DNA of 21,066 nucleotides from a candidate division WOR-3 bacterium (GCA_039801885.1 JBDRVN010000029.1:1-21066); one strand, 5' to 3'. Numbered from the stretch's first letter, positions 500 through 21,066 are shown. Numbers and translations are program-made. The notes: generated from the sequence alone by a model not told the origin.

Positions 500-1550
500 C
501 TTCACAAACAAAATTTATTTTTGGATTATCAATATGATTTACTGTCTCTTTTAATGCCTCTTCCATTCGCAAAATATTCTCTTTGGTTAAATATTTAATT
601 TTTCCTTCTTTATAAAGTTTTAAAAATTTCTTTATTGGCAAAACTTTGAATTTGTATTTTTCTCCTTCTTTATATTTTGCTATCCAACAAGGAATATAAC
701 TTATTTCTTTTAAGAATACTTTATTATCTCTTTTATCAATAATATATTTAAGCATAATACCAGTATCAGTATACCTTTTTCTTTGGCCACAAAAGAAATT
801 ACCTAAAGAATAGGCAACAAATACTTTTTTATTATCAATTTCAACTATTTCTACTGGTTGAATAACATGGGGATGCGAAGCGATAATCATATCAGCACCA
901 AATTTAATAACCTCTCTTACAATCCTTTTCTGTTCTTTGTTGGGATACCTCTCATATTCATTACCAAAATGTAAAGCAACAATTACAAAATCACTTATTC
1001 TTTTTGCCTTTTCAATATCCCTTTTTATCTTTTCTAAATCAATTAAATTAACCATCCAAGGTTTGGGAATTGGTATTCCATTTGTGCCATAGGTATAACT
1101 TAAAAAAGATATTTTAATATTATCCTTTTCAAAAACATAAATATTTTCACTCTCTTCTTCATTATCATAAGCACCGATTTGTATTAAATTATATTTCTTT
1201 AAAATATGAGTAGTTGTTTTTAGTCCTTTTTCTCCATAATCCATAGTATGATTTGTTCGAAAAGTTATTTTAAAGCCAACTTTTTCTAAAACTTCTGCTA
1301 GATTTTTCGGTGTTTTAAAACAGGGATAACCAGTATAAGGTCCAATTGTATCTAACACACCACCAAACCAACAGGTAACAATATCTGCATTCTTTAAATA
1401 AGGCTCCGCTTCTTCAAAACAGGGATAGAAATTATATATTTTACTTTCCTTTTGATAAACACTTTTCAATACCGATTCGTGAATAAATATATCTCCAACA
1501 GAAATAATTTCTATCTTGTTTAAAAATAAGATTATTAGTAAGAAATTCAA
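489..1550 (-). CDS. CapA/PGA_cap-family secreted metallophosphoesterase-like protein
   Basis: Motifs VGDIFIH, TNHTMDYG, SYTYGTNG, LHFGNEY, SHPHVIQP, AYSLGNF; hydrophobic N-terminus; TTG start directly after the upstream stop (TAATTG). Confidence 0.85.
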   Translation of the reverse strand: MNFLLIILFLNKIEIISVGDIFIHESVLKSVYQKESKIYNFYPCFEEAEPYLKNADIVTCWFGGVLDTIGPYTGYPCFKTPKNLAEVLEKVGFKITFRTNHTMDYGEKGLKTTTHILKKYNLIQIGAYDNEEESENIYVFEKDNIKISFLSYTYGTNGIPIPKPWMVNLIDLEKIKRDIEKAKRISDFVIVALHFGNEYERYPNKEQKRIVREVIKFGADMIIASHPHVIQPVEIVEIDNKKVFVAYSLGNFFCGQRKRYTDTGIMLKYIIDKRDNKVFLKEISYIPCWIAKYKEGEKYKFKVLPIKKFLKLYKEGKIKYLTKENILRMEEALKETVNHIDNPKINFVCEDDY

Positions 1551-2627
1551 TTACTCAATAACCTCGCCTTCCAAACTTCCCTTTGCCCTTAAATATAATA
1601 TCAACCCGTTAGAAAAATCTTTACTTAAAATATGGAGATTTTCCAAAAGAAATAGAGCACTTTTATAATCTTTCTGCTCAAAATATTTCAAGGCATCCGC
1701 ATAATATCCTTTTGTCTTCTCTTCAACCTTGGGCAAGGTATTAGTCAATTCTTTTTCTAAATAAGTTTCAATACCCCTTTTCAATTCCGAAAGATAATCA
1801 TTTAACTTATTGATATTGATACTAACTTCGCTTAATGCCTTTCTTTGTGCCTCTTCTTTGGAATTGCTTACACCTTTTCCTTCGGAAGAGGATATTTTAC
1901 CAATAATATTTCCCTTCTTATCTTTTAAATAAATAATATAATATGCCTTTATTGTCCAAAGCGGTCCACCTAATGACGCCAGTTTACTTACTGTCTCATA
2001 AGAAGGCGTACCGATAATTTGGGCAAAATATTTCTCATTATCAATAATAAAATTATTGCCTTCTAAAATTGATTTAATCTCCTCATAATAATCGGAAGAA
2101 ACCCTTACCCGATAGATCTCTTCATTCTCTTTTAATAGGTTAACAAGATTTTCCTTTTCATAAATCTTTGCCAAATTTTCATTAAGCATTTTCAAAAACC
2201 TTTCTGATTGAATTCCACCAAGGATATAATACTTTTTCTCTCTCTTATTCTCATATTTATCCCGAACCTCAAAGTATTCACTCACCTTATCAAGAACATT
2301 CTTAATCTCTTTCGCTACCAAATCTTTTAGAATAAAATCAAACTCAGTCTTAACCGGTGGATTAAGGCGGCTCAAATATTCACTTGTTAAATTATAGAGC
2401 AAAGCACTTAACTCTTCCTTACATTTTGCTTCGGCATCACTAAGAGAGGTTTGCGAGACCGAAACAGTTGTAAAATAACCTTCACTACCAATTCCCAATT
2501 TCTTAGTCGGCAATTTTACCCAATCTGGCTCCTTTTTTTGAGAAACTTTTTGAGCACAAGAAAAATCTAACTTCTCACAAAAGATGAAAAGAAGAAAAAG
2601 GAAAATAATAAAAAAAACCTTTTTCAT
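1551..2627 (-). CDS. Hypothetical exported protein/lipoprotein (LPP20-like N-terminus), 358 aa
   Basis: Start re-assigned to ATG at 2627 (MKKVFFIIFLFLLFIFC), preceded by GGGGG SD; the track start at 2660 lies inside the promoter. Signal peptide with Cys, then EPDWVK motif; short TPR-like helix pair at the C-terminus. Confidence 0.7.
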   Translation of the reverse strand: MKKVFFIIFLFLLFIFCEKLDFSCAQKVSQKKEPDWVKLPTKKLGIGSEGYFTTVSVSQTSLSDAEAKCKEELSALLYNLTSEYLSRLNPPVKTEFDFILKDLVAKEIKNVLDKVSEYFEVRDKYENKREKKYYILGGIQSERFLKMLNENLAKIYEKENLVNLLKENEEIYRVRVSSDYYEEIKSILEGNNFIIDNEKYFAQIIGTPSYETVSKLASLGGPLWTIKAYYIIYLKDKKGNIIGKISSSEGKGVSNSKEEAQRKALSEVSININKLNDYLSELKRGIETYLEKELTNTLPKVEEKTKGYYADALKYFEQKDYKSALFLLENLHILSKDFSNGLILYLRAKGSLEGEVIE

Positions 2628-3904: not shown

Positions 3905-6553
3905 ATGAAAGTATTATTAAAAGTTATTTTGTTAGTAATTGTATTTCAGTTTTTTATTATAATCCTTCCAACTGCTTGGGCTACAAAAGATGTGGTAATC
4001 AATTCTCAAACTTCAATAATTAGTCCTCAAGGACAATCAAACACGACTGATGCACCGGAAGCAATAGCAATTCCGCGAATGTTCAATTATCAAGGCAAAC
4101 TGACTGATGCAACAGGTAATCCAGTAAGAGATAGCACTTATTCAATAACCTTTCGGTTCTTTAAGGTTTCCAGTGGTGGTACCGCCTTTTGGAATGAAAC
4201 ACAAAATGTTCAGACTAATAGTGGACTTTTTAATGTCCTTTTAGGTTCACTAACTCCGATTGATTCCATACCGCAAGATGGTAACTGTTACCTTGAGATG
4301 CAGGTGAATCCCAATCCAGCGATGACACCAAGGATCAGAATTGTCAGTTCCGCTTATGCCTATCTATCAAAAAAAGCTGATAGTGCTGGTTATGCGGCAA
4401 GTGCTCCAATCATAAGACCAATCACACCACCAGTTTATAGTGCTGAGATTAGAGATACAACGATTATTGCTGGTAAGATAAAAGATGGTGCGGTGACGAT
4501 GGCAAAGATAGACCAATCAGGTGCAACAACTGGGCAAGTGATAAAGTGGACCGGAACTGCTTGGGCACCGAGGAATGATAGTGCTGGTGGTCCGCCCACA
4601 GGTCCAGCAGGCGGTGACTTGACTGGGACTTATCCCAATCCGACGATTGCCAATAATGCGGTCAATTCGGCAAAGATTGCTGACCGTGAGGTTACTAATG
4701 CTGACCTTGCCGAAAATGCGGTTACCACTTCAAAGATTACTGATGCTAATGTTACTCTGGCTAAAATCAGTCCGACTGGTTCTTCAGCAGGTCAAGCGAT
4801 TATTTCTACTGGTTCTTCAACACCGCCGACTTGGGGAAATGTAGCGCCTGGTCCGCACAATCATCTTGGCGAGACTTGGACAACTACTACCATTGACCGG
4901 GGCCTTTTGATGAAACTTGACCGTAATACATCATCCATAATTAACGGATTAGTTGATTCAGTGCTCAATGCTGGAACTGGTTTTGCTTACGGTGCCCAAT
5001 TTTATGTTAGTGGCACTGGCACCGGTCCCAGATATGGTATCTATACCCAAGCATCCTGCCCATCAGGCTCGGGTAGTGGTGCGACGGGTATCTATAGCAG
5101 TGGGTCGAGCGAAGGGACCGGAATAGTTTATGGTGGTTATTTTTATGCTGGTGGTAGTGGCACTGGAACTAAATACGGTGTCAATAGCTTTGTGGCAGGT
5201 CCTAGTAAAATGTACGGCGTTCGTAGTTCCGCTTCACTTTCTTCGGCGGCGACTGATTCAGGCTTTGGAGTTTATGGTTCTTGTTCTAATAGTGGTTCGG
5301 GCAAAACCTTTGGCGGATTCTTCAATGCTGGTGGTTCTGGTGCGGGTGCGAAATATGGAGTAATAAGTAGCGCTTCGGGTTCATTGTCAGATACTGTCTT
5401 CGGTGTCTACACAACAAGTTCAAACTCAGGTTCTGGTCCCGGTTATGCCTTCTATGGAAAAACTTCAGTTCCCTCTGGAAATGGCTGGGGCTATGGTGGC
5501 TACTTCAATGTCGCTGGTTATAGGAGTAGGCTATATGGAGTTTATAGCGATGTCTCGGCTTCAGATGTTTCTACCGACCCAGCATATGGATACTACGGAC
5601 AGGTTTACCACTCTGGTAGCGGTTATGTGTACGGCGGTAGTTTTGAGGCAACCGGCACCGGTACCGGCGAGAGGGTGGGTGTTCGTGGCTCGGCATACAT
5701 ATCATCGGGTTCAAGTTCAATTTATGGTGTATATGGTTATGCTACACACAGTAGTGTTGGTGCTGCATACGGCGGTAGGTTCAGTGTATCTGGTGGCACT
5801 GGCATTAGATACGGCGTTTATAGCGACGCTAATGGTTCAGGTTCAGTCTATGGGGTCTATGCAACTACTTACAATTCTTCTGGAAGTGGCACTTCATACG
5901 GCGGTTATTTCAAGGTTACTAATACCACTGGTAATAATACCGGCGTTTATGGCGAGGCTTCTGGTTCAAATTCTAACGGAGTTTATGGAACTGCAAGCGG
6001 GACTTATTCTGCTGGCGGATATTTCAGTGGAAATTATTGGGCCGGTGTTTTTGAAGGCGATGTGCATGTCACTGATTTTCTCAGGGTAGAAGGAGATTGT
6101 TGGATAGGCGGAGATTTTTATGTAGTTGGGTCAAAATCAGCTGTGGTTAAAATTGATGAAAACGACCAGCGACTGGTCTACTGTCAAGAAAGCCCGGAAG
6201 TCTGGTTTGAAGATTTCGGCGAAGGTCAGTTGAGAGATGGTAAAGCAGATATTCAACTCGACCCAACCTTTCTTAAAACCGTAACTATCTCCGAAGAACA
6301 TCCAATGAAGGTATTTATCCAACTGAATGATGATTGCAATGGTGTCTACGTTAAACGAGGAAACACCGGTTTTTCGGTGGTTGAACTTAATAATGGCAAA
6401 TCAGATGCCCATTTCACCTATCGGGTAGTAGCAAAACGTAAAGGATATGAAAATGTGCGATTAGAGAAAATAGAGCCAGATATAAATCCTAATGAAATTA
6501 TACCCGAAAGTCTGAAATACCGCGTCAAAATGAAGGTACGGAGAAATAAATAA
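3905..6553 (+). CDS. Secreted fibre/adhesin-like repeat protein (tail-fibre-like), 882 aa
   Basis: Signal peptide (…PTAWA); N-terminal IPRMFNYQGKLTD domain; GDLTGTYPNPTI motif and AVTxAKI decad repeats; long Gly/Ser-rich YG(V/G)Y repeat region; C-terminal ESPEVWFEDFG…VAKRKGYE domain resembling phage tail protein C-termini. Confidence 0.8.
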   Translation: MKVLLKVILLVIVFQFFIIILPTAWATKDVVINSQTSIISPQGQSNTTDAPEAIAIPRMFNYQGKLTDATGNPVRDSTYSITFRFFKVSSGGTAFWNETQNVQTNSGLFNVLLGSLTPIDSIPQDGNCYLEMQVNPNPAMTPRIRIVSSAYAYLSKKADSAGYAASAPIIRPITPPVYSAEIRDTTIIAGKIKDGAVTMAKIDQSGATTGQVIKWTGTAWAPRNDSAGGPPTGPAGGDLTGTYPNPTIANNAVNSAKIADREVTNADLAENAVTTSKITDANVTLAKISPTGSSAGQAIISTGSSTPPTWGNVAPGPHNHLGETWTTTTIDRGLLMKLDRNTSSIINGLVDSVLNAGTGFAYGAQFYVSGTGTGPRYGIYTQASCPSGSGSGATGIYSSGSSEGTGIVYGGYFYAGGSGTGTKYGVNSFVAGPSKMYGVRSSASLSSAATDSGFGVYGSCSNSGSGKTFGGFFNAGGSGAGAKYGVISSASGSLSDTVFGVYTTSSNSGSGPGYAFYGKTSVPSGNGWGYGGYFNVAGYRSRLYGVYSDVSASDVSTDPAYGYYGQVYHSGSGYVYGGSFEATGTGTGERVGVRGSAYISSGSSSIYGVYGYATHSSVGAAYGGRFSVSGGTGIRYGVYSDANGSGSVYGVYATTYNSSGSGTSYGGYFKVTNTTGNNTGVYGEASGSNSNGVYGTASGTYSAGGYFSGNYWAGVFEGDVHVTDFLRVEGDCWIGGDFYVVGSKSAVVKIDENDQRLVYCQESPEVWFEDFGEGQLRDGKADIQLDPTFLKTVTISEEHPMKVFIQLNDDCNGVYVKRGNTGFSVVELNNGKSDAHFTYRVVAKRKGYENVRLEKIEPDINPNEIIPESLKYRVKMKVRRNK
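4646..4768 (+). repeat. Four ~10-aa coding repeats (IAxxAVTxAK)
   Basis: IANNAVNSAK IADREVTNAD LAENAVTTSK ITDANVTLAK. Confidence 0.8.
4988..6058 (+). repeat. Degenerate 11-17-aa coding repeats, core (Y/F/T)G(V/G/I)Y, roughly two dozen copies
   Basis: e.g. GTGPRYGIYTQA, GTGIVYGGYFYA, SDTVFGVYTTS, SSSIYGVYGYA, GSVYGVYATT; recurrent TATGG/TACGG in the DNA. Confidence 0.85.
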
Positions 6554-6575: not shown

Positions 6576-7151
6576 ATGAGTAGAATATGGAATTTTTTAC
6601 ATGAACAGCCACAAGGGATATTTATTTTTTTCTACTGCTTAATTCTTACTGCTTTCTGCTCACTATCTTTTGGACAATACCACTGCGATTGGAATGTTTT
6701 TGATGCCAGTGGTGGATTTTTAAGTTCAACTGATTTTCAAACCAATACTTCATTTAGTCAACCAGCAATCGGTTATTTAACCACAACCAACTTACAAGCA
6801 TTTATCGGCTTCTGGCAAGTTGGACCATTAGTTGGAATTGAAGAATCGGAAGAAATGCCAAATCTCATTAAATTAGAAACAAAACTCTTTAACCCCCAAC
6901 CCAACCCTTTTACCTATAAGACACGGATTATATTCTCCCTTAAGAATCAAACAAATGTTAAACTTTTCATCTACGACTTAACCGGCCGAGTTGTAAAAAA
7001 TCTAATTAACGGTAATATGAAGCCCGGAGTTTACTCAATAGACTGGCGAGGCGACGATAATCAGAGTAAGAAATTGGGAAAAGGTATTTACTTCCTGAAA
7101 TTTGAGACCGAGGGTTACCAAAAGATAAAAAAACTACTTCCTGTCCGATAA
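6576..7151 (+). CDS. Small secreted protein with C-terminal FlgD-Ig/T9SS type A-like sorting domain
   Basis: AAGGAGGAG SD; signal peptide ending SFG-Q; ~50-aa domain DWNVFDASGG…SQPAIG…IGFWQ; CTD PNPF…IYDLTGRVVK…WRGDD…GIYFLKF. Confidence 0.85.
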   Translation: MSRIWNFLHEQPQGIFIFFYCLILTAFCSLSFGQYHCDWNVFDASGGFLSSTDFQTNTSFSQPAIGYLTTTNLQAFIGFWQVGPLVGIEESEEMPNLIKLETKLFNPQPNPFTYKTRIIFSLKNQTNVKLFIYDLTGRVVKNLINGNMKPGVYSIDWRGDDNQSKKLGKGIYFLKFETEGYQKIKKLLPVR

Positions 7152-7704: not shown

Positions 7705-9810
7705 ATGAAAGCAATAAAAACATTTTTTATATTTTTTATTTTTCTTTTCGCAAGTGAAACATCTTTTATCTCTTCTAATAATCCGATAGAAGACATTTAC
7801 GGAAAAGCGCCCAAAAGTTCTCCTTTTAATGCCCGATTAACCGATGATTCCCTTTGGATAAAAACTGACTCTATGCCTTTGCCTTCAATTGGTAGTAGTG
7901 ATGCTTGGACAGGTTTAAAAGTCTATGGTGATACAGTTTACATTGTCTTAAATCAAGCTAATATGGCTTTCCAAGTACAAAAAAGAAATCGTTTAACCGG
8001 TGCCCTAATCTCTTCTTTTAATGGTAATACTACGCCTTCTTACGCAATGAGCGCAGTAAGGGTTGATGATTCAATATTTGTTTCGGTATTTTATCCGTCG
8101 CCAGAACATATTGAAGTTTATTCAGCAAACGGAACCTATGTCCGTTCTTTTAATGCTCCATCAGGATTTCGTTGTCGGGGAATGGATTGGGATGGTTCAA
8201 AACTTTGGGCCTGTAATACTCAAGAGTATGGAAATACTATTTACACAATGACAAGAGAAGGAACTTTATTAAGAAACTTAACAAATACCGGACCAATTAC
8301 CTGCTATTGGTTTTTTGATATGACATTAGATAGAATGATTCCCAACCGATTATGGGTAAATGACCAAGAATCTCCTTTTGTTACCCGTTATATCTCTTTT
8401 GATACGATAGCAAATACCTATCAAGTAAATGCCACTTTTACCCATCCGGGAAGTCCAAGTTATTATCCCGAAGGAATTGGCTTTTATGGTCCGGAAGGCG
8501 GAAATGGTTATATTTATACAGTAGGACACGCTTCTCTTTGGGCTTGGAAGATGATGGTTCATACTTATACCGGAACATCGGATGTTGGTGTGGCGGCAAT
8601 AAGAAATCCTTCAGCAATTGTTGACCCGAATTCCAGTATTACACCAATAGCCGTGATAAAAAATTTTGGTGCCCAATCTCAATCAAATATCCCTGTTTAT
8701 TTTTGGATTGATTCAAGCAATGTAAGGATTTATAATCGGGATATAAACTTTCCTGGTCCACTAAATCCCGGTGAAACTGCTCGTGTCACTTTTCCCAATT
8801 GGTTTACTGGTCCAGCAGGAATAAACTATCAAATCACTTGCTTTACTAATTTAGGCAATGATACTAATAGAACAAATGATACTTTAAAACAAAGAACCAC
8901 CACTTTTTTAGTAAGAGATACCTTAATCGCACCTTTTGCTCAGGTTTCACCAAACATTGATGGTAATATTCAACAATCGGAATGGTATGATGCCTTAAAA
9001 TGGGATATTTCTGATGTTTTAAATATGCAAGGTAGCGGTCCCCGACCTGCTGGTAGTGTCTTTCTTTATGTGAAGCACGATTCTAATAATGTCTACTGGG
9101 CGCTTGATTTTGTGGCAAAAAATACAAGGGATAACTATGACCAATTTGGTTGTTATTTAGATGAAAATTATAGCCGAACTTGGGCAACCGATTCTTCCGA
9201 AGGTAATCATTGGTTTGTCTGGCTAAATCAAGATACTGTTGTCTATCGTGCCTTAATTGGACCAGGAAATATTCCCAGTGCTTATTGGGTAAGATGGGCA
9301 AGCGGTAATGGTATTTCTCGGGCAAGTACCGTTTCCGGTCATCTCCAATTTGAAGCAGTCGTTGCTAAAGGAACGCAAAAATGGAATTATAATATCAACA
9401 CAATTTGTGATACGGTAGGTTTTTATGTTTATGCTTCTGCCGGACCAACCGGAAATGATATGTGGGGAACTTGGCCAACAACAATGCCAGGTAGTAATTG
9501 GAATAATGCTGCTACTTATGGGACTCTGATATTTGGTAGCCAACCATCAGCAATTAGCGAAACACAAATCATTACCTTTAAAAAATCAAAAAATAATATT
9601 TTTAGAATGCCTCTTATCTTAAAAGATGTTGAAAATATCTCAATCTATGATGCTACCGGAAAATTATTAAGAAGAATTAATAAGATAGATAAAGAACTTA
9701 TTTGGGATGGCAAGGATAATAAAGGCAACTTTCTTTCTTATGGTATCTATTTTCTTAAATTAAAAACCAAGGACGGCTTACTAACAGAAAAAATAATAAT
9801 CACAAGATAA
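7705..9810 (+). CDS. Secreted multidomain protein: beta-propeller-like region, CARDB-like Ig domain, CBM9/DOMON-like domain, FlgD/T9SS-like C-terminal domain
   Basis: Signal peptide; GMDWDGSKLW blade-like motif; DVGVAAIRNP…VIKNFG…D TNRTNDT; PNIDGNIQQSEW…VKHDSNNVYWA; IYDATGKLLR…WDGKDNKG…GIYFLKL. Confidence 0.75.
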   Translation: MKAIKTFFIFFIFLFASETSFISSNNPIEDIYGKAPKSSPFNARLTDDSLWIKTDSMPLPSIGSSDAWTGLKVYGDTVYIVLNQANMAFQVQKRNRLTGALISSFNGNTTPSYAMSAVRVDDSIFVSVFYPSPEHIEVYSANGTYVRSFNAPSGFRCRGMDWDGSKLWACNTQEYGNTIYTMTREGTLLRNLTNTGPITCYWFFDMTLDRMIPNRLWVNDQESPFVTRYISFDTIANTYQVNATFTHPGSPSYYPEGIGFYGPEGGNGYIYTVGHASLWAWKMMVHTYTGTSDVGVAAIRNPSAIVDPNSSITPIAVIKNFGAQSQSNIPVYFWIDSSNVRIYNRDINFPGPLNPGETARVTFPNWFTGPAGINYQITCFTNLGNDTNRTNDTLKQRTTTFLVRDTLIAPFAQVSPNIDGNIQQSEWYDALKWDISDVLNMQGSGPRPAGSVFLYVKHDSNNVYWALDFVAKNTRDNYDQFGCYLDENYSRTWATDSSEGNHWFVWLNQDTVVYRALIGPGNIPSAYWVRWASGNGISRASTVSGHLQFEAVVAKGTQKWNYNINTICDTVGFYVYASAGPTGNDMWGTWPTTMPGSNWNNAATYGTLIFGSQPSAISETQIITFKKSKNNIFRMPLILKDVENISIYDATGKLLRRINKIDKELIWDGKDNKGNFLSYGIYFLKLKTKDGLLTEKIIITR

Positions 9811-16870: not shown

Positions 16871-17350
16871 ATGATTTTTTATTCAATAAATGAAGTATTA
16901 GAAATGGCAATCCAAATTGAGAAAAGTGGTTATCAATTTTATTTAAACTCAAAAGAAAAAACTAATGACAATAACTTAAAAGAACTTTTTGATTTCTTAT
17001 CAAGTGAGGAATTAAAACATATGGAAACATTTAATAGGATTAAAAACCGATTAAAAACAACACCTTATAACTTACCTTTTGATTGGGAAGAAGTAAAACT
17101 ATATTTAAAAGTAATCACCGACTCTCATTTCTTTGCCGGTGAAGATAAAGTTTTAAATTTAATGGAAAGAGCCAAAAATGAGAAAGAGCTGATTGACTTG
17201 GCAATTGCTTTTGAAAAGGAGACATTGCTCTTTTATTATGAAATATTAAATTTAGTTGCCCAAGAAGAAACACCTGTGGTGTTAAAGTTAATTAATGAAG
17301 AGAAGGCACATATTAAAAAATTAGAAACTATAAAAGGAGAAATTAAATGA
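16871..17350 (+). CDS. Ferritin-like (rubrerythrin di-iron domain) protein 1
   Basis: AIQIE…FY…EELKH / AIAFE…FY…EEKAH duplicated di-iron motifs; no rubredoxin CxxC domain; AAGGAGG SD. Confidence 0.88.
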   Translation: MIFYSINEVLEMAIQIEKSGYQFYLNSKEKTNDNNLKELFDFLSSEELKHMETFNRIKNRLKTTPYNLPFDWEEVKLYLKVITDSHFFAGEDKVLNLMERAKNEKELIDLAIAFEKETLLFYYEILNLVAQEETPVVLKLINEEKAHIKKLETIKGEIK

Positions 17351-17847
17351 AAGAAATCTTTCAATTAGCAATCAATTTGGAAAAAGAAGCACTCTCTTCA
17401 TATCTTCGTTTTGGACACCAGATAGAAGACTTAAAAGGGAAAAACCTTTTTATCCGTTTAGCAATGGATGAATTTGAACACATTGAGATCTTAGAAAGAG
17501 AATTAGAATATTTTGAAAAAGAAAAAAAATTTAAAGATGTAGAAATCCCTTTAACGGAGATTGAAAAAACGGTTATCAATTTAAAACCCTTATTACCCAA
17601 AGAGAAAAAGGTATCGGATTTGAATGAATTAAATATCTTACAAATGGCTTTATCCTTAGAAAGTAAAAGTATTGATTTCTATCAAACACAAGAGAAAGAG
17701 AGCAGCGACGAGATTGCTAAAAAAATTTGGCAAAGATTAAAAGAGATTGAAGAAGGTCATTATAAGTTAATTCAGGCAGAAATCGATTCTCTAACAAAAA
17801 CTGGTTTTTGGTTTGATTTTCGTGAATTTACTTTAGAAGAATATTAA
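17347..17847 (+). CDS. Ferritin-like (rubrerythrin di-iron domain) protein 2
   Basis: AINLE…DEFEH / ALSLE…FY…EEGH; aromatic tail GFWFDFREFTLE. Confidence 0.88.
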   Translation: MKEIFQLAINLEKEALSSYLRFGHQIEDLKGKNLFIRLAMDEFEHIEILERELEYFEKEKKFKDVEIPLTEIEKTVINLKPLLPKEKKVSDLNELNILQMALSLESKSIDFYQTQEKESSDEIAKKIWQRLKEIEEGHYKLIQAEIDSLTKTGFWFDFREFTLEEY

Positions 17848-17874: not shown

Positions 17875-18366
17875 ATGGGAGAAACATTAACTCCCTTAGA
17901 AATATTACAAAAGGCAATAAAATCGGAAATTGAGGCTTATCAATTTTATAATAAATTGGAAAAAGTGGCAGAGAATAAAGTTTTAGAGAAGAAATTAAAC
18001 TTCTTAAAAAAAGAAGAGAAAAAGCATGAGAGATTATTACGAAATATCTTTAAAAATCAATTTCCCAAAGAAAAAATCAAATTACCAGAAAAAGGTTTTA
18101 CTCCTTTACCGGCAATTGATATGATTGAAAAATTATCTTTAGAATCTCTTTTAGAAGCAGCAATGGAAGCGGAAGAGGCTTCCGAAAAATTCTATCGGGA
18201 AAATTCAATATTAATTAACGATGAAAATAGCAAAAGATTATTGATTTATCTTTCTTCCATGGAAAAGTCTCATTATCAAATTTTAAAGACCGAATATGAT
18301 TTATTAACCAGTTTCACTTCTTATGAGGCATATAAAAAATTCTCCTTAGAACATTTAGGACCATGA
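17875..18366 (+). CDS. Ferritin-like (rubrerythrin di-iron domain) protein 3
   Basis: AIKSE…FY…EEKKH / AMEAE…FY…MEKSH; tail HLGP; AAGGAGG SD. Confidence 0.88.
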   Translation: MGETLTPLEILQKAIKSEIEAYQFYNKLEKVAENKVLEKKLNFLKKEEKKHERLLRNIFKNQFPKEKIKLPEKGFTPLPAIDMIEKLSLESLLEAAMEAEEASEKFYRENSILINDENSKRLLIYLSSMEKSHYQILKTEYDLLTSFTSYEAYKKFSLEHLGP

Positions 18367-19526
18367 AAAGAATATATCTGGACCACCAAGCAACCACTCC
18401 TATCCATCCAGAAGTTTTATCCTTAATGGAAAATCTACAAAAAGAAGTATTTGGTAATCCTCAAAGTTCCCATTCTTTTGGTTTTGAAGCAAAAAAATTA
18501 TTAGAAGAAGCAAGAGAAAAAATTGCTTCCCTTTTGAATGTTTCGCCTACCGAAATCTATTTCACTTCCTCCGGTACTGAAAGTAATAATTGGGCAATTA
18601 AAGGAATTGCCTTTGCCAATCAAGATAAAGGCAACCATATTATCGTTTCAGCAATTGAACATTCCTCAATAATTCAACCAGCAAAAAGGTTAGAGAAAAT
18701 GGGATTTGAAATCACCTATTTACTGGTTGATAAATACGGCACTATTGATTTGGATGAGTTAAAAAAGAAGATAAAAAAAGGAACAATTCTTATTTCTATA
18801 ATGCATGCCAATTATGAGGTAGGCACAATTGAGCCAATAAAAGAAATCGCTGAAATAGCCAAAGAGAATAAGATTATCTTCCACTCTGATGGTGTGGCGG
18901 CGGCTGGTCAATTAAAAATTGATTTAAAGGAATTAGGCGTTGACCTTTATACTATTTCTTCCCATACTTTTTATGGTCCAAAAGGTGTTGCCTTATTATA
19001 TATCAAAAAGGGGACAAAAATCCAACCATTGATTGAAGGTGGAATCCAAGAAAATAATCGACGAGCAGGAACAGAAAATTTAATTGGTATTATTGGTATG
19101 GCAAAGGCTTATGAAATTGCTCAAAAAGAAAGGGAAGAAAGAAAAAATACATTAGAAAGATTAAGAAATATATTGATAGAAGAATTACCTAAAAAGATTG
19201 AAAATGTTTATTTAACCGGTCATCCACAAAATCGTTTGCCTAACCATGCCAGTTTTTGTGTGTATTATGTGGAAGGTGAAGCAATGGTTTTATATTTAAA
19301 TCAATATGGAATCGCCTGCGCCTCTGGTTCAGCCTGTTCTTCTAAACAGTTAAAAGCGTCTCATGTTCTTTGGGCAATGGGCATACCTCCGGTTTTAGCC
19401 CAAGGCTCTATTGTTTTCACCTTAGGAATTGATAATAAAGAAGAAGATATCAACTATCTTTTAGAAGTATTTCCATCGATCGTAAAAAAACTAAGAGAAA
19501 TTTCACCATTGTATAAAACTTCTTGA
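18363..19526 (+). CDS. iscS: Group I cysteine desulfurase (IscS/NifS) homologue, non-canonical active site
   Basis: IYLDHQATT, GNPQS, FTSSGTESNN, IEHSS, RAGTEN, SGSACSS; but SSHTFYGPKG instead of SxHKxxGPKG. Confidence 0.85.
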   Translation: MKRIYLDHQATTPIHPEVLSLMENLQKEVFGNPQSSHSFGFEAKKLLEEAREKIASLLNVSPTEIYFTSSGTESNNWAIKGIAFANQDKGNHIIVSAIEHSSIIQPAKRLEKMGFEITYLLVDKYGTIDLDELKKKIKKGTILISIMHANYEVGTIEPIKEIAEIAKENKIIFHSDGVAAAGQLKIDLKELGVDLYTISSHTFYGPKGVALLYIKKGTKIQPLIEGGIQENNRRAGTENLIGIIGMAKAYEIAQKEREERKNTLERLRNILIEELPKKIENVYLTGHPQNRLPNHASFCVYYVEGEAMVLYLNQYGIACASGSACSSKQLKASHVLWAMGIPPVLAQGSIVFTLGIDNKEEDINYLLEVFPSIVKKLREISPLYKTS

Positions 19527-19551
19527 TTTAAAAATTATTCTTAATTATAAT
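19523..19551 (+). promoter_or_regulatory. Sigma70-type promoter (probably leaderless) for the selenoprotein operon
   Basis: TTGATT-17 nt-TATAAT, then 7 nt to ATG 19559; no SD; -35 overlaps the iscS stop codon. Confidence 0.65.
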
Positions 19552-19558
19552 AACCTTT

Positions 19559-20287
19559 ATGGATAGATTATTTTTCTTACTCAGTGCCTTAAATTTTGTT
19601 TTTTTAATTTCTTGTTCCGAAGCACCAAAAATTGAATTTAAAAAAGGAAATAAGAAAGTCTTGGTTGAAATCTTTACTCAAGCAGGTTGACCTTTTTGTA
19701 TGGCTGCGGAGCAGTCTTTATTAAATTTAAAAGAAGAATATCAAGATAGTTTATCAATAATTGCTTATCATTTAGGTGACGAATTCCAAAACGAAATATG
19801 TGAAAACCGTTATAATTTATACCAAATAAATCGAATACCAACCGCAGTCTTTAATGGAAGATATAAGGTCTTCTTAGAAGAAGTGTCAAATATTGACTCA
19901 ATCTATAACTACTATATTTTAAATACCCTTTCGGAAAGCACTTATTATAACATTCTTTTAAATCAATTAAATAACAGCACCATAAATCTTAAAGTTATTT
20001 CTAATAGCGAAAATCCAACTCTCCAAGAATATCGGTTATTTGTCTTTCTTACCGAAGATAGTGTGTTTTCGGAAATAGCTCCCTTTTTTGAAAACAATTG
20101 GGTTTTTAAAGAAAATCTTTTCCCCTTAGAAGGTATTAATTTTAATGCCACGATTTTTGATACCTTTGATACTACTTTTAATATTTCTTTAAATCAAAGA
20201 AATCTAAATGTTGTTGCCTTTATCCAAAATGTTAATAACTTAGAAATCATTCAAGGTAAAAGTCTAAAATTGGGAGGTGAAAGATGA
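19559..20287 (+). CDS. Probable selenocysteine-containing thioredoxin-fold (Omp28-like) lipoprotein, 242 aa, U44-P-F-C47
   Basis: MDRLFFLLSALNFVFLISC (lipobox) SEAPKIEFKKGNKKVLVEIFTQAG[TGA 19688-19690]PFC, in frame with the track ORF 19700..20287; IIAYHL, IPTAVFNG (cis-Pro), FLTED and NVVAFIQN motifs match my recollection of Omp28-related proteins. Confidence 0.85.
19691..19725 (+). promoter_or_regulatory. Candidate bacterial SECIS element
   Basis: GGCTGC-GGA-GCAGTC hairpin (19702-19716) starting 11 nt after the TGA; G-initiated apical loop 17 nt from the TGA; weak AU-rich lower stem. Confidence 0.7.
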
Positions 20288-20805
20288 AATTAAGGAATTT
20301 AATTTTTATCTTAATTTTATTTTTCTTTATTTATGCCCAAGAAAAAGCGGATACTTTAAAATCTTATAAGAAAGCACCTAGTTTTTCTCTATATAATATT
20401 AATAAAGAAAAAACCTATATTGATTCCCTTTTAGGAAAAGGACCAATTTTTATTAGTTTCTGGGCATTGTGGTGTAAACTTTGTATCCAAGAACTTGATG
20501 CCTTTAAAAAGATTTATGACCAATACGAAACATTAGGGCTTAAAGTATTAGCTATATCTGAAGATGGACCAAGGGCAATAAATAATGTGAAATCCTTTGT
20601 GAAAGGGAAGAAATGGAAATACGAAATCTTATTGGACCCTGATGGAAAAGTGAGAGAACTTTTTGGTGTTGGTTCAACGATGCCCACAAGTTTTATTCTT
20701 GACAAAAAGGGAAACATCCGTTTAGTTTCTCGGGGTTATAAAAAGGGCGATGAAAAGAAATTTATAAGAGTTATCGAAGAAATAATAAATGAAGAGAAAA
20801 AGTAA
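20284..20805 (+). CDS. TlpA/ResA-family exported thiol-disulfide reductase
   Basis: Signal peptide (…IYA-Q), APSFSL, FWALWCKLCIQE, AISED, MPTSFILDKKG; GGAGG SD, ATGA overlap. Confidence 0.92.
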   Translation: MKLRNLIFILILFFFIYAQEKADTLKSYKKAPSFSLYNINKEKTYIDSLLGKGPIFISFWALWCKLCIQELDAFKKIYDQYETLGLKVLAISEDGPRAINNVKSFVKGKKWKYEILLDPDGKVRELFGVGSTMPTSFILDKKGNIRLVSRGYKKGDEKKFIRVIEEIINEEKK

Positions 20806-21066
20806 ATTTTTCTTATTTTTCTTTTTTTTCTTTTATCTCTATTCTCAAGAAGAACTCCCCACGGAAAATAAATTAAATATCTCCGGTGAAATTAAAGGAG
20901 AGTATTGGTTTTGGACAAAGAAAGATACCAATTTCAAATTTTCTGACCATTTTGAAGGCAAAACTAGGGTTTTAGTCAACTATGAAAATATTTACTTACG
21001 AGCAGGTATTTTCCTTTATCAACCAAGTTTACCTAAAAAGAGTTTAAAAGAATATTATTACAATTT
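20789..21066 (+). CDS. Exported, probably outer-membrane beta-rich protein, 5' part (possibly DUF6029-like; runs off window edge)
   Basis: Open frame from ATG 20789: MKRKSKFFLFFFFFFYLYS-QEELPTENKLNISGEIKGEYWFW…VNYENIYLRAGIFLYQP; amphipathic beta-strand pattern; overlaps tlpA by 17 nt. Family guess rests on recalled gene context. Confidence 0.65.
   Translation, partial: MKRKSKFFLFFFFFFYLYSQEELPTENKLNISGEIKGEYWFWTKKDTNFKFSDHFEGKTRVLVNYENIYLRAGIFLYQPSLPKKSLKEYYYN

Follow-up and report, generated by a model that had tools for sequence, protein, structure and literature searches.

The window analysed here is a 21,066-nucleotide (nt) stretch of DNA from a candidate division WOR-3 bacterium (GCA_039801885.1, JBDRVN010000029.1:1-21066), and the gene of interest lies on its plus strand, at positions 19559-20287. 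The reading frame opened by the ATG at 19559 crosses a single TGA (19688-19690) and ends at another TGA (20285-20287), giving 242 codons plus the stop. An in-frame TAA is located upstream (19529-19531), and ATG 19559 is the earliest start codon downstream of it. The read-through product of 242 amino acids (aa) begins with MDRLFFLLSALNFVFLISC19SEAP..., in which a predicted signal peptide ends in the lipobox L-I-S-C19 (19559-19615, plus strand, motif CSEAP). It continues as KKVLVEIFTQAG-U44-PF-C47-MAAEQS..., where the UGA, read as selenocysteine (Sec, U44), takes position 1 of a thioredoxin-type U-P-F-C motif that ends with the codon for the presumed resolving cysteine (Cys47, 19697-19699). An initial annotation, made from the sequence alone, had proposed an exported selenoprotein at this locus, and the extension of the frame through the TGA to an ATG with a signal peptide and lipobox is present as it described. 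The evidence given below makes it very probable that this gene encodes one lipid-anchored envelope selenoprotein in which the UGA specifies Sec.

Gene callers start instead at the ATG at 19700, which falls inside a hairpin described below, and report a protein of 195 aa. All of the public proteins matched by a word-indexed search (6/6) are near-identical 195-aa products, designated, where named, as 'hypothetical protein' of candidate division WOR-3 bacteria; the truncation anticipated by the initial annotation is therefore found in the public records. Distant relatives were not returned by the word-indexed protein search, but homologues were recovered by a six-frame search of genomes.

The six-frame search covered 41 genomes (the genome of the window and others of its genus and order) and identified homologues in 39 of them, including 29 matches in 28 genomes with exactly one TGA. 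We examined the 30 best loci returned and the 20 remaining TGA matches, leaving out the other TGA-free rows, which are mostly paralogs of about 600 aa. In every TGA-bearing locus (29/29, from four families of the order) the TGA falls in the residue-44 column, in the form U-x-[FY]-C. The same column contains Cys in all 21 TGA-free loci examined, in the form C-x-Y-C-P-[YH]-A, and these Cys-type paralogs are single uninterrupted open reading frames (ORFs) with the layout of the Sec type. The TGA thus stands at the first Cys of a thioredoxin motif, as had been proposed, and both of its flanks are conserved. The lipoprotein layout is present in 27 of the 29 TGA loci. In an alignment of 43 lipoprotein-type members, from which L027, L040, L041, L046, L052, L058, and L068 were dropped, residues C19, S20, A22, P23, E37, U/C44, C47, A50, and L57 are invariant, and P94, at the expected position of the thioredoxin cis-proline, is nearly so. 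Only 2 of the 26 Sec-type sequences have ATG at the codon corresponding to 19700. An invariant lipobox ahead of the TGA and the lack of conservation of ATG 19700 together rule out the 195-aa reading. A maximum-likelihood tree divides the Sec from the Cys forms by one branch (support 92/99) and places the window's pair on a long branch.

The orthologue in a sister species (genome G005) retains the TGA at a DNA identity of 94.5%. Upstream of the TGA, its 43 codons differ from those of the window by 3 synonymous and 2 non-synonymous changes; the 198 codons downstream show 17 synonymous and 14 non-synonymous ones. The codon on which the initial annotation depended was also found, with no alternative letters, in contigs from public sequencing runs of two studies. 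Contigs of run X1, which may be the source sample of the window assembly and is possibly not independent support, span 19300-20115 and include the TGA, as do contigs of run X14, from a different study, which span 19598-19776. Contigs of runs X4 and X2 provided no useful bridging of the TGA. Run X14 is labelled metatranscriptomic and flagged 'probably DNA', and no inference on expression is drawn from it; the runs with a large share of the stretch are all labelled hot-spring metagenome. Since the TGA at 19688-19690 is kept in G005 and is seen in contigs of two studies, it is not an assembly slip.

Shortly after the UGA, at 19700-19718 on the plus strand, is a hairpin of the selenocysteine insertion sequence (SECIS) type, with 7 of the 8 base pairs (bp) of a family helix. 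Its 6-bp core, GGCUGC-GGA-GCAGUC (19702-19716), starts 11 nt past the UGA, and its GGA loop (19708-19710) lies at a UGA-to-loop spacing of 17 nt. The hairpin was compared across 26 Sec-type sequences, 24 of them distinct, aligned without gaps from the UGA (L052, L058, and L068 were omitted). In this set, positions 13-20 pair with positions 24-31 around a 3-nt loop that is mostly GGA, and 94.8% of cells are paired, compared to 24.0-52.1% in controls with the partner shifted by 1-3 columns. Changes on both sides of the helix occur in 6 of the 8 pairs (37 cells), and the covariation score of 0.498 was reached by none of 500 shuffles (0.204 +/- 0.026). Sec-type genes (n=28) have on average 7.36 of the 8 pairs and a mean local energy of -11.9 kcal/mol, as opposed to 3.33 pairs and -3.4 kcal/mol at the matching columns of Cys-type genes (n=21); local hairpin energies of the relatives range from -8.5 to -16.3 kcal/mol. 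The bacterial SECIS (bSECIS) model, as given in a 2026 review (PMC13188914), has a loop of 3-9 nt with G in loop positions 1-2, an upper stem of 4-16 bp, a UGA-to-loop distance of 16-37 nt, and an energy of -7.5 kcal/mol or lower. Set against this model, the 3-nt loop, the G in loop positions 1-2, the stem, and the 17-nt spacing of the window hairpin all fit. Small G+C-rich hairpins also follow the UGA of two other genes in the same genome, selD and a second Omp28-like gene, and their loops (AGUUG and GUG, respectively) have G within the first two positions. The 26 natural variants with compensatory changes describe a compact, well-defined bSECIS, with 8 bp, a triloop that starts with G, and a distance of 17 nt to the UGA, and could help train selenoprotein gene finders.

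The genome of the window (1.56 Mb, 91% complete) encodes the Sec machinery that the initial annotation had named as a check. The genes selA (564.8 bits), selB (366.8 bits), and selD (320 bits) and a tRNA-Sec with anticodon tca (72.7 bits) were all identified above curated cut-offs. The selD gene has its own in-frame TGA, at ...LCPGUASKF, and the SelD of this genome is itself a selenoprotein as judged from its sequence. Across the order, selB exceeds the cut-off in 37 of the 41 genomes. Two near-complete genomes without selB, G003 (98%) and G035 (92%), have no TGA form; in G031 (76% complete) the TGA form is present and selB was not found. As separate observations, the selD gene (contig C23 of the same genome, G000; locus L001, minus strand) has a GACGC-AGUUG-GCGUC hairpin after its in-frame TGA, and in G019 (contig C37) and G021 (contig C59) selB and Omp28-like TGA genes are about 10 kb or less apart.

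The protein combines two predicted parts. Weak matches to thioredoxin-type Pfam families cover residues 29-98, and the region matching the Omp28 profile (PF11551), residues 85-240, corresponds to a C-terminal beta-sandwich; PF11551 is also listed in the precomputed database annotation of the 195-aa product. An AlphaFold2 model built from a 43-row alignment (predicted local distance difference test score 91.7, predicted template modelling score 0.85) has a thioredoxin core (strand-helix) followed by an Omp28-type beta-sandwich. Strand 34-40, a U/C-x-x-C motif at the start of helix 45-64, and P94 directly before strand 95-98 give the predicted model the features of a thioredoxin fold. The best Foldseek match in the PDB is HBP35 of Porphyromonas gingivalis (5y1a, E 1.4e-10, query TM-score 0.71 over 245 columns), followed by the DUF1223 protein Atu2684 (2axo, E 9e-10, root-mean-square deviation 9.5 A), the Omp28 domain 2r2c (E 6.5e-5), and then thioredoxin chains (E ~1e-3). 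A profile search of PDB sequences returned the same set, with thioredoxin 1nho at 9e-5.

Bacterial lipoproteins carry a lipobox of the pattern [LVI][ASTVI][GAS]C, and L-I-S-C19 fits it. The genome encodes Lgt (194.7 bits) and LspA (101.5 bits), and the window includes a BamD/YfiO-like gene; with this gene content, a lipoprotein anchored in a two-membrane envelope is plausible.

The initial annotation could not say whether such a family had been catalogued; it has. Zhang and Gladyshev (2008, PMC2398784) describe GOS_C, from ocean metagenomes, as a predicted selenoprotein that is thioredoxin-like in fold and carries UxxC (74 Sec sequences and 312 Cys homologues), and the 2026 review equates GOS_C with NF045500, 'Omp28-related selenoprotein', motif UxxC (PMC13188914). 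GOS_C proteins resemble the window protein in being exported and thioredoxin-like, with a UxxC motif in which Sec replaces the first Cys, with Cys homologues, and with a bSECIS. Two GOS_C sequences from Dataset S2 share ...VV.VE.FT...U-P-Y-C..., ...IP...NG, and ...VQN... with it by eye. The same two sequences differ from the window protein in having a plain signal peptide in place of the lipobox CSEAP, and a Pro following the second Cys (UPYCP) where the window protein has A-A-E-Q. The window protein is also shorter (242 aa, compared to 377 positions in the NF045500 model), is encoded next to a TlpA-like gene in a fixed operon, and matches NF045500 (residues 30-236 on profile positions 37-266 of 377) with a score far under the cut-off. 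That cut-off is reached in none of the 41 genomes of the order, where the best match scores 80.8 bits. Because of this low score, we class the window protein as a divergent WOR-3 lipoprotein branch of the GOS_C/NF045500 kind, which has been known since 2008.

At more than 440 aa, the products of two of the 29 TGA loci, L052 (G039:C102) and L058 (G033:C18), form a longer Sec subtype. Their signal peptide is plain, their motif is U-P-Y-C-P-G, and their hairpin is a different one that stands further along; in the vicinity of the Sec they are nearer than the window protein to the GOS_C sequences. The genome of the window also contains a second candidate Omp28-related selenoprotein (G000 contig C43, locus L069, ~1330-2436, plus strand). 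In this protein the motif is ...YQEG-U-GSC and the signal peptide is plain; its Omp28 domain scores above the cut-off (64.3 bits) and its type IX secretion C-terminal tail just below (24.9 bits; cut-off 27). The UGA is followed by a CCAGCA-GUG-UGCUGG hairpin.

Among characterized proteins, HBP35 is similar in being a cell-envelope protein with a thioredoxin-like domain, a CxxC-type site, and a beta-sandwich. It differs in its sequence (13% identity), in having Cys instead of Sec, in binding hemin, and in being exported by type IX secretion, for which it has a C-terminal sorting domain, instead of being a lipoprotein. Its thioredoxin activity in vitro is reported to be lost on mutation of the two active-site Cys (PMC2907840). 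Omp28 of P. gingivalis (PF11551, 2r2c, NF033782) shares lipoprotein character and the C-terminal beta-sandwich with the window protein, and its solved fragment, 2r2c, is the C-terminal domain only. DUF1223 (PF06764, Atu2684) matches at the ...ELFT..C..C... site with 20.1 bits, against a cut-off of 30.7. In the literature collection searched, no work joined Omp28 with a selenoprotein, and for WOR-3 with selenocysteine the match inspected was unrelated by its title and abstract.

Several observations weigh against the identification of this gene as a lipid-anchored selenoprotein. Sec insertion at UGA 19688 is inferred from support at the sequence level, and among runs on record as RNA none contains the stretch. 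The relatives compared are kin, so that the counts overstate independence. The profile matches fall below their thresholds for PF11551 (33.0 bits; gathering score 34.9), for NF033782, 'Omp28 family outer membrane lipoprotein' (51.1 bits; cut-off 150), and for NF045500 (47.6 bits; cut-off 200). The window hairpin is weak, with 6 bp plus one A-U pair, and its energy of -7.4 kcal/mol in a 25-nt stretch (-8.3 to -8.6 kcal/mol in 60-61 nt) is borderline to the -7.5 kcal/mol of the bSECIS model. Folded as a single 61-nt sequence it has a z of 0.15, with 113 of 200 shuffles folding equally well. Scanning 19500-19900 against Rfam, with E values up to 10 admitted, returned five chance-level matches and no SECIS family. 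The conserved peptide C-x-A-A-E-Q encoded at this site could explain part of the conservation of the hairpin, and the hairpin with its TTTATT tail fits a terminator-like pattern. The SECIS-like hairpin of the initial annotation has therefore held up in its conservation with compensatory changes and not in its single-sequence stability, and its weight comes from the comparison with relatives.

These points bear on three other explanations. If the gene were a pseudogene or truncated remnant, with a TGA that arose by nonsense mutation or misassembly, the agreement of gene callers and public records on 195 aa would be expected, and a fold around the hairpin that is no stabler than shuffles would cause no surprise. 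Such a codon would hardly recur in one column of 29/29 TGA-bearing loci from 28 genomes and four families, with both flanks conserved and an invariant lipobox upstream. The persistence of the TGA in G005, where the substitution pattern upstream resembles that downstream, and its presence in contigs of two studies also count against a chance lesion, which we regard as scarcely credible. The ATG 9 nt past the TGA and the terminator-like hairpin would in turn be accommodated by two products, a 43-residue lipopeptide and a 195-aa cytoplasmic protein started at ATG 19700, with the hairpin serving as a terminator or attenuator. This arrangement would split the thioredoxin fold between strand 1 and the active-site helix and leave the larger part without a signal peptide, while the Cys-type paralogs encode the same layout in one piece. 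With ATG 19700 present in only 2/26 Sec-type sequences and the T-run absent from most relatives that retain the hairpin itself, we consider two products extremely improbable.

UGA is the leakiest stop codon, and near-cognate or suppressor decoding might insert one of the standard amino acids Cys, Trp, or Gly here; that the support for Sec sits at the level of sequence, and not of selenium or mass spectrometry, leaves some room for this. The full Sec machinery in the genome, the covarying, bSECIS-fitting hairpin at a fixed distance from the UGA that is missing in the Cys paralogs, and the lack of a TGA form in the two near-complete relatives without selB all favor Sec over a standard amino acid, as does the standard code of the genome, and we find this explanation very unlikely. 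An altered code with TGA as a sense codon was rejected, since, among the 21 ORFs with a stop inside the window, 6 end in TGA. The interpretation as a lipid-anchored envelope selenoprotein, which the initial annotation had offered, is favored by the sel genes, the alignment, and the covarying hairpin alike.

Upstream of the selenoprotein gene, a sigma-70-like promoter, TTGATT-17-TATAAT, is located at 19523-19551 on the plus strand (10/12 matches, the best of the region). The promoter of the initial annotation is present in this sense, but the number of promoter-like sites is not above chance (6, compared to 7.2 in shuffles). For the promoter, as for the hairpin, the weight comes from comparison with relatives and not from the single sequence. 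The site is retained in the G005 orthologue, and the near-identity of the two sequences means that this adds little. Upstream of ATG 19559 no Shine-Dalgarno sequence was seen, and the following gene has GGAGGTG. With 7 nt between the -10 box and the ATG, and with no Shine-Dalgarno sequence, the selenoprotein mRNA may be leaderless.

The gene downstream (20284-20805, plus strand) overlaps the selenoprotein stop with its start (ATGA) and encodes a predicted exported TlpA/ResA-like thiol-disulfide oxidoreductase with an AhpC/TSA fold (83.5 bits), a W-C-K-L-C motif, and a signal peptide; its match to the ResA model (87.9 bits) is below the cut-off of 170. It is followed by the 5' part of a gene for a DUF6029 outer-membrane beta-barrel (20789-21064, plus strand), which is cut by the contig end. 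The TlpA-like gene is immediately downstream, on the same strand, in all 26 main-type Sec loci with downstream DNA (L068, which reaches the contig end, is outside this count) and directly downstream in none of the 21 Cys-type loci. In G005 the operon continues with a DUF6029 protein of 486 aa (85.5 bits, ending ...CSGGVCRYEAPF...), a 44-aa peptide with a single predicted helix, and, last, a 327-aa membrane protein with iron-sulfur motifs that match Fer4_5 (77.7 bits) and the NapH/MauN type (62.4 bits, below the cut-off). The order TlpA-like, DUF6029, peptide ORF (36-53 aa), and NapH-like is kept on the same strand in 12/12 further sampled genomes, which come from three other families.

The neighbor at 20284-20805 is of the TlpA/ResA/CcmG type, having both a signal peptide and a WCxxC motif, and by analogy with that type its pairing with the selenoprotein suggests a reductase and its client. 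In the textbook TlpA/ResA/CcmG pathways, DsbD/CcdA passes on the electrons, and cytochrome c or copper proteins serve as clients. The operon described here carries a NapH-like Fe-S protein and a DUF6029 barrel instead; a CcdA-like gene is found elsewhere in the genome.

If the gene encodes a selenoprotein as proposed, translation would begin at ATG 19559, the hairpin at 19700-19718 would recruit SelB with Sec-tRNA(Sec), and selenocysteine would be inserted at UGA 19688. The precursor would then be exported and presumably lipidated at the lipobox Cys19. The mature protein would act as a selenol/thiol-disulfide oxidoreductase, with nucleophilic attack by Sec44 and resolution by Cys47, and its probable redox partner is the adjacent, predicted exported TlpA/ResA-like protein. 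The selenoprotein may be a client or the terminal member of an envelope thiol/selenol relay, whose electron direction and substrate we can only infer. This reading as an envelope redox relay is based on the continuation of the operon with the DUF6029 barrel, the membrane peptide, and the NapH-like protein. It is conceivable, if on balance doubtful, that the selenocysteine lipoprotein faces outward in a redox relay that spans the envelope, has not been described before, and is conserved throughout this order of WOR-3. In such a relay, the NapH-like Fe-S protein and the 36-53-aa peptide would take electrons at the inner membrane, the TlpA-like periplasmic reductase would carry them, and the UxxC lipoprotein would hand them to, or through, the DUF6029 barrel. 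If true, reducing power would be supplied to the outer membrane or cell surface without DsbD/CcdA.

The public copies found are all 195 aa long and lack the signal peptide and active site; as a result, counts for WOR-3 bacteria fall short both in the selenoproteome and in envelope redox equipment. The fixed operon points to a testable shared role in envelope redox chemistry for GOS_C/Omp28-like selenoproteins, DUF6029 barrels, and the NapH-like protein. The family has been known since 2008, and the general picture of selenium use is unchanged.

Several further features of the operon and the window were observed. DUF6029 resembles Wzi-type outer-membrane barrels, and the passages on it concern polysaccharide export and not redox chemistry (PMC9603273). 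The DUF6029 barrels (L084, 5254-6714, minus strand, and loci L085-L096) have a conserved ending, ...C-S-G-G-V-C-R-[FY]-E-x-P-F..., and the C-terminal Cys pair is seen in 8 of 13 loci, the stretch inspected being too short for the first Cys in the remaining 5. The ORF that separates DUF6029 from the NapH-like gene (L084, 5120-5254, minus strand, and loci L085-L096) encodes a small membrane peptide that had no family match in Pfam or NCBIfam and occurs in two forms. One ends ...VGSVMCLSCMGLQ in family f5 and ...GILLCLSCMGLG in the sister species G005 of family f1, and the other ends ...GDPETIHRFAAQI, or a close variant of it, in families f2 and f3.

On the upstream side, a NifS-like class V aminotransferase gene (18363-19526, plus strand) directly precedes the selenoprotein gene; this synteny is found only in the sister species and is given no functional weight. 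Before it are tandem rubrerythrin-family genes at 16871-17350, 17347-17847, and 17875-18366 (plus strand). Two long ORFs, at 3905-6553 and 7705-9810 (plus strand; 882 and 701 aa, respectively), have no Pfam match at E 1e-5, and a gene between them, at 6576-7151 on the same strand, encodes 191 aa that include a type IX secretion tail (33.2 bits).

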